Shown one piece after another: positions 28,640 to 34,024 of a stretch of DNA of 64,000 bases (position 1 is the first letter of the stretch; every line of letters starts with the position of its first letter). Origin of the DNA: an uncultured Bifidobacteriaceae bacterium (GTDB lineage Bacteria > Verrucomicrobiota > Verrucomicrobiia > Limisphaerales > UBA11358); NCBI GenBank assembly GCA_964532525.1, contig CAZHIM010000001.1, positions 274,530 to 338,529 of the forward strand, read 5' to 3'. A program made the position numbers and the translations under genes. The notes beneath the pieces were generated by a model, which was not told the origin of the DNA, made no database searches, and was given only the letters and a program-made list of their open reading frames with translations.

Positions 28640-28677
28640 ACTTAGCCGTCCGGAAGGCGCCCTCGCCTCCCTCGCGC

Positions 28678-28915
28678 CTATCGGCTCATGCCGTGCTTGA
28701 TGACTGGCGTGGAGAATTTCCGGGGCGTCCAAAGTTGCGGGTCGCCGAGATTGCCGAGACGATCCACGGCGCGCACGGCGACGGCATCGGGATTGGCCAC
28801 CTCGAAATAATCGTCCAGGCGCGGTCCGGGAACGATCTGGGTGGTCCAGGCGCCGTTGGCGCGGGCCTGCACGAGCCACCGGCCAGGCGGCGCCGAGGGG
28901 GCGAACCGTCCGTGG
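28678..28915 (-). pseudogene. Orphan duplicated 3' fragment of the GHL10 hydrolase gene (32450..34024)
   Basis: 28682-28888 aligns without gaps to 32454-32660, with about 20 mismatches in 207 nt. It encodes ...WLVQARANGAWTTQIVPGPRLDDYFEVANPDAVAVRAVDRLGNLGDPQLWTPRKFSTPVIKHGMSR, against the C-terminus of the full gene. No upstream catalytic part is present. Confidence 0.8.
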
Positions 28916-29070
28916 TTCGCGCCGACGCAGGCGTTGAACGATTTTGCGCGTCCTGAATGGCGCGAGTGGAGGCGACGTGAACGCCGCGCGCCAGTCGCGG
29001 CACGGAGCCGCAGCGAAGCGTGGGCGCCCCTGCTTTTCTCGGTAATATGCGTGGCTCCGCTTCCGCCCCG

Positions 29071-32000: not shown

Positions 32001-32361
32001 ACCCCCAACCAAATCCGTCAGGCATATAAACCGGAATGGTGGAACCAAGCAATGTTGCCGACCTCGTGTTCGGCGAACCGGTCCAAAGATTTACATAAAC
32101 CGTCGCCCCATTGTTGCCGTTGTTGGGTAGGTCCAGGAGCTCAAATTGCACAAATCCAATCGCCGAAAGGGTCGGGACAAAAGATTGGGTCAAAGGTTCG
32201 GGTTGAATATCAAGATAATCTCCCAAAGTTGTTGGTGGAATCGTGGATTGCTGGTCGTAAACAACGCCCTGCGCGTGGGTTTGGAATGCGGCGGCGATAA
32301 ATATCGCCGCCAGCAGGTTTCGGATCGTCCGATTGGTCCCGCAGGTTGGAATCATAAGCAT
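29071..32361 (-). CDS. Large secreted adhesin-like ORF: a small PEP-CTERM protein module fused in frame to an ~880-aa Ig-like/Calx-beta repeat protein
   Basis: The N-terminal signal peptide is [45 protein letters not shown] lies at aa ~186-212. A second signal-like segment, [18 protein letters not shown], follows. A Calx-beta-like block reads [37 protein letters not shown]. Ig-like repeats are [48 protein letters not shown] and [16 protein letters not shown]. GC is visibly lower than in the neighbouring genes. Confidence 0.75.
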   Translation of the reverse strand: [1096 protein letters not shown]

Positions 32362-32449
32362 AAGCGATTTCTCATTCTGTTTCGATGCGGTATAGCGTGT
32401 TTAACAGCGGTTGCAAGCGACAAATTTGTGACGCTCTGCCCCCGCCCGC

Positions 32450-34024
32450 CTACCGGCTCATGCCGTGCTTGACGACTGGCGTGGAGAATTTCCGGGGCGT
32501 CCAAAGCTGCGCCTCGCCAAGATTGCCCAGACGATCCACGGCGCGCACGGCCACGGCGTCGGGATTGGCCACCTCGAAATAATCGTCCGCGCGCGCCCCA
32601 GGCACGATCTGCGTGGTCCAAGCGCCGTTGACGCGGGCCTGCACCAGCCACCAGCCGGGCGGGTGGGCGCCGGAATTTTGCCATTCGACGTGCGGGGTCC
32701 GTTCCGCCAGGGAGACGGACACCCCGGCCGGCGGCGCCGGGGTGATGGCGGGGAGCCAGGGGGTGGTCGGCACGAGTGCGGGAACCGCGTACGCGGCGCG
32801 CACAGCGGCCGCCAGCGCTGGATTCTCCAGGATGCTCCGCAAATGATAATGCACCGCGCCAGGGTCGCTTTTCTGCCGGATGATCTGGAGTTGGCGGGGA
32901 ATCTCGGCCACGGAGAATTTCGTGCCGACGTTGGAATCGGACAGGCCCGGCCAGACGTGCCGGCCGCGCGCATTTTGGGCGCGCCACCAGTCGAACAGCA
33001 GGGGAAAACTCTGCTGGGGCGTCGCCACCGGCCAGTAAAGCTGCGGGGCCAGATAGTCCACCCAGCCTTCCGCCAGCCACCGGCGCGAATCCGCATAAAG
33101 CCGGTCGTAGGCGTCCATGCCCGCAATCGGCGGCGGATTCTTGGGCCGCCAGATCCCAAACGGGCTCACGCCAAACTGCACCCACGGCTTGGCGGCCTTG
33201 ATGGCTTGCGACAGCTTGAAGATGAAGCGATTGATATTGTCCCGCCGCCAGTCCGCCCGGCTCAGGCCGGTGCCGGCACCGTACCGCCTCCAGCTCGCCT
33301 CGTCCGGAAAATCCAGATAAACCCCCACGGCGTTTTTCTCCGGGTAAGGATAGAAATAATCGTCAATCACCACGCCGTCCACGTCGTAGCGCCGCACCAC
33401 GTCCGTCACCACCGCCAGCACCCGCGCCTGCACGGGCGGCTCGCCGGGATCGAGCAGGGTCTGGTCGCCGTAATGCCGCACCAGTTCGGGCACCGTGCGG
33501 GTGATATGGTTGGCGGCGGCCGGCGATCTGGCCTGGGGATGGCCGGCCCGGAACGGGTTGAACCAGGCGTGAAGTTCGAGTCCCCGTTTATGCGCCTCGG
33601 CCACGGCGAAGGCCAGGGGGTCGTAATACGGCTCGGGCCCGCGCCCCTGGGCACCGGTGAGATATTCGGACCACGGCTCAATGGACGATCCGTAGCAGGC
33701 GTCGCATACCGAGCGCACTTGGAAAAAAACGGCGTTGAAGTGGAGCTGCGCCGCGCGGTCGAGGAGCGAAATCAGTTCCGTCTGCTGCTGGGCCGCCGGC
33801 AGGCCGGGTTTGGACGGCCAGTCAATGTTCGCCACGGTGGCGATCCAAGCGGCGCGAAATTCGCGGGGCGGCGGCGGTGGCACGATTTTGGCGGCGGCGT
33901 TTTCCTCCGGGGCGGCCGCCTGCGCGGCCAGCGCCAGAAAGAATGCCACGCACCCGGACAGCCTGCGCCAGAAACGGCGCGGCACCTGCCGGGCCGGGGG
34001 CGCGATGAAAAGTGACAGCGGCAT
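32450..34024 (-). CDS. Glycosyl hydrolase-like 10 (GHL10/DUF187, YngK-type) secreted protein
   Basis: EFRAAWIATVANIDWPSKPGL...LHFNAVFFQVRS..CDACYGSSIEPWSEYLTG...YDPLAFAVAEAHKRGLELHAWFNPFRA. The ATG at 34024 gives a signal-peptide-like N-terminus, CVAFFLALAAQAAA. Confidence 0.75.
   Translation of the reverse strand: MPLSLFIAPPARQVPRRFWRRLSGCVAFFLALAAQAAAPEENAAAKIVPPPPPREFRAAWIATVANIDWPSKPGLPAAQQQTELISLLDRAAQLHFNAVFFQVRSVCDACYGSSIEPWSEYLTGAQGRGPEPYYDPLAFAVAEAHKRGLELHAWFNPFRAGHPQARSPAAANHITRTVPELVRHYGDQTLLDPGEPPVQARVLAVVTDVVRRYDVDGVVIDDYFYPYPEKNAVGVYLDFPDEASWRRYGAGTGLSRADWRRDNINRFIFKLSQAIKAAKPWVQFGVSPFGIWRPKNPPPIAGMDAYDRLYADSRRWLAEGWVDYLAPQLYWPVATPQQSFPLLFDWWRAQNARGRHVWPGLSDSNVGTKFSVAEIPRQLQIIRQKSDPGAVHYHLRSILENPALAAAVRAAYAVPALVPTTPWLPAITPAPPAGVSVSLAERTPHVEWQNSGAHPPGWWLVQARVNGAWTTQIVPGARADDYFEVANPDAVAVRAVDRLGNLGEAQLWTPRKFSTPVVKHGMSR

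Follow-up and report, generated by a model that had tools for sequence, protein, structure and literature searches.

Displacement of C-terminal coding parts, with orphaned 3' fragments, was reportedly described in 2009 by Jackson and colleagues for loci of the Rhs and contact-dependent inhibition (CDI) type. Variable islets also occur next to genes for stable RNAs (tRNA, tmRNA). The locus described here recalls both. In an uncultured verrucomicrobium, a direct repeat of the 3' end of a GHL10 glycoside-hydrolase-like gene brackets a low-GC gene for a large secreted protein (called the adhesin gene below), close to the RNase P RNA gene. It lies on contig CAZHIM010000001.1, in a 64,000-nt stretch (positions 274,530 to 338,529) that is referred to as the window and is numbered from its first letter. 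Relatives of the window genome are uncultured Verrucomicrobiae/Limisphaerales. Homology-facilitated illegitimate recombination (HFIR) has been established in Streptococcus, Acinetobacter and Pseudomonas, with natural transformation cases in Streptococcus pneumoniae, Acinetobacter baylyi and Pseudomonas stutzeri, and has been seen in Escherichia coli conjugation (PMC3240628). It has also been proposed for orphan 3' fragments in type VI secretion system (T6SS) and Rhs loci (Kirchberger et al. 2017, PMC5361080).

The repeat is regarded here, with moderate confidence, as the scar of an import from a sister branch, in which one end of the incoming fragment underwent a homologous crossover in a chagasin gene and the other was joined illegitimately past the adhesin gene. 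Such a scar is of a known kind. It implies no new mechanism, gene family or function and is biologically modest, ordinary as recombination scars go and open to unusually good dating. As a natural case of recombination between species it would be a clean one, in an uncultured verrucomicrobium sampled in environmental metagenomes. The import can be delimited on both sides to within tens of bases, and donor-type and recipient-type alleles of the same 229 nt are present in one genome. The genes of the minus strand are, in order, a trypsin-PDZ protease, GHL10, a 1096-aa open reading frame (ORF), the orphan fragment and chagasin. The features of the locus that bear on the repeat are as follows (window positions, strand, description):

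32450-34024, minus: intact GHL10 (YddW-like) glycoside-hydrolase-like gene, 524 aa plus stop (Pfam PF02638, E 1.6e-68); also called in contig L081
32434-32662, minus: R1, the repeat copy in the resident gene; final 70 codons of GHL10 with the stop, plus about 16 nt
32362-32433, minus: AT-rich stretch of 72 nt (44% GC) from the GHL10 stop region to where the large ORF starts; the low-GC insert has its left edge here
29071-32361, minus: large secreted-protein ORF ("adhesin"), 1096 aa; three Pfam Big_9 domains, Cadherin_5, PEP-CTERM at aa 187-209
28891-29070, minus: GC-rich spacer of 180 nt (70% GC) from the ORF stop to the orphan
28874-28891, no strand: putative illegitimate join, left end of the import, placed by the three-way alignment
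28662-28890, minus: R2, the orphan; a GHL10 3' end of sister-lineage type, 70 codons with the stop plus about 16 nt
28328-28661, minus: flank B, from orphan to chagasin; collinear with the downstream flank of the sister GHL10, with an insert resembling a miniature inverted-repeat transposable element (MITE) and a hairpin
27902-28297, minus: chagasin-family (I42) peptidase-inhibitor gene (Pfam PF09394), mosaic

A repeat search of the window returned a single family of direct repeats, 28662-28890 and 32434-32662, each 229 nt long, aligned without gaps and spaced 3772 nt apart. R1 and R2 differ at 26 positions (88.6% identity). In the 100 nt on each side of the repeat, identity to the partner at +3772 is only 22-31%, so its boundaries are sharp. 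Past both TAG stops about 16 nt are still similar (11/16), and this is the weak similarity beyond the stop codons that the initial annotation had reported. The direct duplication of the GHL10 3' end which it had described, 28682-28888 against 32454-32660, is likewise ungapped and contains exactly 20 mismatches in 207 nt. Its designation of the upstream copy as the genuine one is correct in the direction of transcription, on the minus strand, but not by coordinates. Since the full GHL10 gene occupies 32450-34024 on the minus strand, its genuine 3' end is in the higher-coordinate copy (32434-32662), which leaves 28662-28890 as the orphan. Between the copies are the 72 nt of 44% GC, the 1096-aa ORF and the spacer of 70% GC.

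The orphan R2 is probably a pseudogene fragment. A 64-aa ORF was called there by the gene caller, and it has a W-to-R change in a GWW motif which six homologues keep, as expected for a dead fragment. The same arrangement was found with 99.9-100% identity in independent assemblies of at least five samples, made with two pipelines (contigs L087, L088 and L173-L177), and three of these contigs (L087, L088, L174) span adhesin, orphan and chagasin. The locus is also found on an 86.7-kb metagenome contig (ENA ERZ27250145). An arrangement that recurs in at least five independent samples is not an assembly chimera.

The closest homologue of the GHL10 protein outside the window strain's own is P0001 (88% aa identity), which belongs to a sister lineage represented by contigs L082-L086 and L178, with L181 and L182 bridging to L091, L179 and L180. 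Across six genes common to the window and the sister lineage, synonymous divergence (dS) is 0.27-0.38. The sister locus has the order GHL10, flank, chagasin, rnpB (the RNase P RNA gene), CT398, with one GHL10 3' end. In contigs L082-L086, L178-L182 and L091 no adhesin gene, second GHL10 3' end or ion-channel gene was found. Because L181 and L182 join the sister GHL10 flank to chagasin, the sister lineage is seen to lack the adhesin gene and to have a single 3' end. On each of the five sister contigs with the GHL10 3' end, GHL10 is intact and flank B comes next. The initial annotation had proposed a comparison of related genomes for presence or absence of the segment between the repeats, and such a difference is what the sister lineage displays, with its single GHL10 3' end followed by flank and chagasin and no adhesin gene. 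About 30 further relatives also differ from the duplicated arrangement.

The orphan copy resembles the sister gene more than the resident one. Sister contig L082 (11363-11613) matches window 28890-28640 with 95% identity and continues (11602-11680) against 28481-28403 with 92%, while its match to R1 is about 88% and stops 3 nt past the stop codon. In a three-way comparison of the 229-nt core, the resident alone differs at 21 of the 29 variable sites, where orphan and sister agree. Three sites set only the orphan apart, and three only the sister. Overall the orphan is 96.5% identical to L082 and 88.6% identical to R1. Grouping with the sister at 21 sites against the resident at 3 means that the two copies within the window are not each other's closest relatives. 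On this comparison an in-place duplication is rejected, the orphan being nearer to the sister than to the resident.

Synonymous changes follow the same pattern. Between orphan and sister dS is 0.059 (3/53 synonymous sites; binomial P = 1.4e-4 for three or fewer differences given the background), while between resident and sister it is 0.25, in line with the rest of the locus. Orphan and resident are separated by a dS of 0.29 with a ratio of non-synonymous to synonymous divergence (dN/dS) of 0.18, made up of 13 synonymous third-position and 8 non-synonymous changes. This divergence is that expected of orthologues of two lineages. The low dN/dS and the preserved codon-position bias indicate that the orphan spent most of its divergence in a working gene on the sister branch, not decaying in place. 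At three of the seven amino-acid differences distant homologues side with the residue of the orphan and sister. A breakpoint inside the resident GHL10 was also considered and dropped: identity to the sister in 150-nt sliding windows is 80-93% along the gene with no clear step, so nothing marks R1 as foreign.

The likeness to the sister does not end with the repeat. It runs about 450 nt farther, into chagasin. Sister chagasin contig L091 matches the window from 28362 onward, with one mismatch in the 154 nt of 28209-28362, which cover the chagasin 5' end and 35 nt upstream, and 26 mismatches in the 307 nt of 27902-28208 (Fisher P = 2.4e-4). The chagasin gene is therefore a mosaic, sister-like in its 5' part and at background divergence in its 3' part, a pattern which suggests a homologous crossover inside the gene near 28208/28209. 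Together, orphan, flank B and chagasin 5' end form a block of about 0.7 kb (28209-28890) that is several-fold closer to the sister than its surroundings. Its right edge falls inside a gene common to both lineages. Its left edge abuts unrelated DNA: likeness to donor-type sequence ends abruptly at 28890/28891, and the adjoining spacer matches nothing. A larger recent import, suggested by 95% identity over 27456-28362, was partly withdrawn. That interval includes rnpB (27497-27894), which is 97% identical between window and sister and is conserved for its own reasons as a structural RNA, so only 28209-28890 is claimed as imported.

The following course of events would produce these observations. 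The common ancestor of the window and sister lineages would have gained a chagasin gene in the interval from GHL10 to rnpB. Later, within the window lineage, the low-GC gene of the large secreted protein would have come to sit about 16 nt past the GHL10 stop. Separately, before or after the arrival of that gene, DNA from a sister-branch donor would have entered, bringing the last ~70 codons of the donor GHL10, the intergenic flank and the chagasin 5' end (window ~28209-28890, ~0.7 kb). Its right end would have recombined homologously within chagasin near 28208, and its left end, having no homologous partner there, would have been joined illegitimately downstream of the adhesin gene at 28874-28891. 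In the donor, GHL10 is directly upstream of chagasin, so that a fragment reaching leftwards from chagasin ends inside GHL10 and yields the orphan. The donor GHL10 tail would thus be trapped as a non-functional fragment which by chance repeats the tail of the resident gene. The join may have used as microhomology the first ~17 nt of the repeat, where 15 of 17 positions match the sister and two of the three orphan-specific differences are found.

Such a pattern would be one of HFIR. As in that process, one end of the fragment appears to have recombined in a common gene, here chagasin, the other to have been joined illegitimately, and extra donor DNA to have been trapped. In contrast to the HFIR cases described, the event is here read from sequence comparison only, and the trapped DNA is homologous to a gene 3.8 kb away, which results in a direct repeat. 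The locus also recalls the displacement known from Rhs, CDI and T6SS loci, in that an intact gene has downstream of it an orphan of its own 3' end, made by recombination with another strain or species. In those loci, however, a new foreign tip is in use and the native one has been displaced downstream; here the divergence data point to a foreign orphan and a native resident tip. The resident tip has a dS of 0.25 to the sister against 0.38 in the rest of the gene, and it is the orphan, at 0.059, that is the outlier. There is also no toxin/immunity logic, the gene being a housekeeping-type GHL10 hydrolase.

Several points weigh against this account. The direction of transfer follows from parsimony, and the block has no third lineage near enough for rooting. 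The account offers no explanation for the GC-rich spacer of 180 nt. The block is unevenly close to the sister: the 5' part of chagasin diverges by 0.65%, the repeat core by 3.5% and the flank with the hairpin by 7.6%, all from small counts. Part of the close match at the chagasin 5' end, with the 35 nt upstream of it, could be due to constraint.

The adhesin gene itself is a clear outlier, foreign to this genome in its composition. Its GC content is 53.6% and its GC content at third codon positions (GC3) 0.63, while the 18 other called genes of the locus have 59-68% and 0.78-0.86. The low GC noticed in the initial annotation is thus borne out, and the codon statistics of the gene are unlike those of its flanks. 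At this locus the gene is absent from the sister lineage and from about 30 related lineages. Its homologues (55-70% identity) are found in four unrelated genomic contexts, with flanks of about 57% GC where measured (L089, L090). Atypical composition, patchy distribution and non-conserved context are all observed, and the 1096-aa ORF is horizontally acquired. It would be an acquisition separate from the sister-like block, which it may have preceded, followed or accompanied.

The initial annotation named the product a PEP-CTERM adhesin. The PEP-CTERM motif is present but internal (aa 187-209) and not C-terminal, and a second signal-peptide-like stretch directly follows it. In L089 the N-terminal 201 aa have their counterpart (79% identity) in a gene of its own, which precedes one of 922 aa. 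The large ORF therefore looks like a small PEP-CTERM protein fused to a Big_9/cadherin-like protein, and the fused form is common to most of its homologues. An exosortase gene is located three genes upstream of the large ORF.

An AT-rich promoter had also been proposed upstream of this ORF. The 72 nt there do have a GC content of 44%, but a promoter is neither supported nor excluded: a simple scan restricted to the sigma-70-type consensus found none near either repeat copy or upstream of the large ORF. Neither the 72-nt stretch nor the 180-nt spacer had a blastn (word size 7) or tblastx match outside the window strain in the more than 170 loci fetched. The spacer holds one weak terminator-like hairpin (29020-29033, plus strand only). 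Contigs from two independent assemblies (L173 from the Joint Genome Institute, JGI, and L175 from ENA) both begin within it, at 28984/28985, 86 nt past the adhesin stop. The shared start suggests a branch in the assembly graph, caused by strain variation or by a repeat elsewhere in the genome. With their 101-aa partial ORF before chagasin, L173 and L175 were considered as adhesin-less variants; this was rejected, as both start inside the spacer of the same arrangement.

Joint arrival of adhesin gene and block in a single event is an unlikely but reasonable alternative. A fragment of about 4.2 kb (~28209-32433) with the adhesin gene, spacer, GHL10 tail, flank and chagasin 5' end would have come from a sister-branch donor in which the adhesin gene already stood in or next to a truncated GHL10. 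The chagasin crossover would again be homologous, and the other join illegitimate, 16 nt past the resident stop. The same sister-like block and chagasin breakpoint are accounted for, and one step explains both the start of the insert right past the resident stop and the adjacency of adhesin and orphan. The adhesin gene is foreign by composition, and although it is missing from all sister contigs seen, an unsampled donor strain is possible. On the other hand, the donor must have had a disrupted GHL10, and no sister-branch contig has the adhesin gene next to GHL10 (5/5 with the 3' end show the intact gene and then flank B). The difference between the spacer, at 70% GC, and the ORF, at 54%, also suggests different origins and not one cassette.

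The initial annotation interpreted the repeat as the footprint of a cassette inserted at the end of GHL10. In that case the 229-nt homology would have served for a Campbell-type single crossover of a circular intermediate, or the insertion would have caused a duplication, and the repeat could mediate loss or exchange of the cassette. This is doubtful, although part of the claim stands: the region is variable and the gene foreign. The direct repeats do flank the only lineage-specific, compositionally foreign gene, as in Campbell-type integration, and the sister arrangement is exactly that expected before insertion or after excision. Loss by recombination between the repeats is also predicted, and exact runs of 33, 30 and 23 nt persist between R1 and R2, so that a RecA-dependent deletion of the adhesin gene, restoring an intact chimeric GHL10, is still conceivable; no such deletion was seen among 8 window-strain contigs.

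What does not fit is the repeat as footprint of the insertion. A single crossover predicts native DNA outside the repeats; instead the sister-type tract continues past the repeat to about 28208, and a simple Campbell-type or cassette insertion is rejected on that ground. A duplication in place predicts copies closest to each other, and the orphan groups with the sister. The dN/dS between the copies is also unlike that of an orphan decayed in place. An integron, integrative island or transposon was rejected as well, since the called genes within 10 kb on either side include no integrase or transposase Pfam family. No attachment-site-like inverted repeat occurs within those 10 kb, and the repeat search of the window found no inverted repeat bracketing 28891-32433. 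A 229-nt repeat with 11% divergence is also unlike a target-site duplication. A direct repeat that brackets a foreign-looking gene thus need not mark the insertion of that gene, and here the comparison with the sister lineage overturned the obvious reading.

A transfer in the reverse direction is very improbable. Orphan and flank would then be old in the window lineage, and the sister would have taken its GHL10 tail, flank and chagasin 5' end from a window-type donor. A comparison of two lineages alone cannot assign the foreign tract, and a crossover in the sister could have left the two orphan-specific differences that the repeat has at its extreme 5' edge. However, the origin of the orphan is left unexplained, and a third donor and a second transfer are needed. 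A long non-coding orphan would be expected to show, by a rough estimate, at least 20 non-synonymous changes, whereas 8 were observed with a dN/dS of 0.18, and the equality of the R1-R2 dS of 0.29 with the between-lineage dS would be a coincidence. Finally, an artefact of metagenome assembly, with reads from two related species of the same samples merged at a common sequence, can practically be dismissed: both lineages are present in the same sample series and several contigs break near the region, but the arrangement recurs across samples and pipelines in spanning contigs, and the orphan block is 3-5% off the co-occurring sister and has a 158-nt insert that the sister lacks, so that it does not derive from sister reads.

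Beyond chagasin three genes follow on the plus strand: that for the RNase P RNA, which the initial annotation does not mention, one for an ion channel and a CT398-like one. The window was searched for RNA genes over 26500-33000. These right-hand features are:

27497-27894, plus: RNase P RNA gene rnpB, bacterial class A (Rfam RF00010, 213 bits, E 8.8e-69)
26640-27455, plus: 816-nt segment with an ion-channel gene (26664-27413; Pfam Ion_trans, Ion_trans_2); the sister lineage is without it
25861-26628, plus: CT398-like coiled-coil/zinc-ribbon gene (Pfam PF24481, PF02591); conserved right-hand anchor of the variable gap

Between the window and L091 the CT398 gene has 87.9% nucleotide identity (dS 0.37). 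In a metagenome search with CT398 the matches listed did not include the window strain itself, so that little can be concluded when a genome is missing there. About 30 lineages at a greater distance have GHL10 and CT398 as convergent neighbours, separated by 0.5-4.7 kb, with a single GHL10 3' end and without an adhesin gene. Nine related loci were scanned for RNA genes: rnpB adjoins CT398 in each of them, and in all eight of those carrying GHL10 it is found in the GHL10-CT398 gap. Judged by these loci, the ancestral layout is taken to be GHL10, rnpB on the opposite strand, and CT398.

The gap between these genes contains further variable elements. The 816-nt ion-channel segment is a second lineage-specific indel; in L091 and L179 CT398 is followed by 16 nt and then the rnpB region. 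Like the islets next to stable-RNA genes, the gap abuts rnpB and has different cargo in each lineage (chagasin, adhesin, ion channel, MITEs). Unlike them, it shows no integrase, no att-like repeat of the RNA gene end and no sign of site-specific integration. Little weight is given to the idea that the GHL10-rnpB gap of peat-associated Limisphaerales is a recurrent hot spot at which species exchange accessory genes, those for surface proteins among them, and in which the repeat would act as a standing switch for RecA-dependent loss of the adhesin gene.

Within flank B, the 158-nt segment at 28482-28639 that is absent from the sister has 20-nt inverted repeats with GGCCTAATTCTTAA, which has just these two exact copies in the window, and is also bounded by a duplicated overlap of about 12 nt. 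It looks like a MITE-type insertion into the flank. Between orphan and chagasin there is also a strong hairpin (28368-28449) with 24-nt arms that are 92% complementary and contain CCACAGATGRACACAGAT, a motif with no further occurrence in the 64-kb window. In two independent assemblies a contig begins within the hairpin, at 28387/28388. Strain variation, or repeats in other parts of the genome, would fit these breaks and those at 28984/28985 (two assemblies each); were the gap a hot spot, they could be traces of deletion variants.

The sister lineage carries a MITE of its own between GHL10 and chagasin (L082 11780-12230), with terminal inverted repeats of about 35 nt containing GGGAGCTTATGCGGACATGG. 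It encloses an element of about 140 nt resembling repetitive extragenic palindromic (REP) sequences, of which copies with 74-76% identity are found in the window at 46436-46574, 6655-6795 and 38336-38471. All five sister contigs end 70-800 nt from GHL10, probably because of these MITE/REP-like repeats. Elsewhere in the sister locus (L082 7127-7837) an NYN-domain gene lies on the opposite strand between the exosortase and trypsin-PDZ genes; the window (~35990-36003) is without it. In distant relatives a cyclic di-AMP (c-di-AMP) riboswitch is located directly upstream of GHL10 on the opposite strand (L001 9740-9898, L002 9739-9901, L004 9632-9783, L136 12879-13040 and others), where it presumably controls the divergent neighbour.

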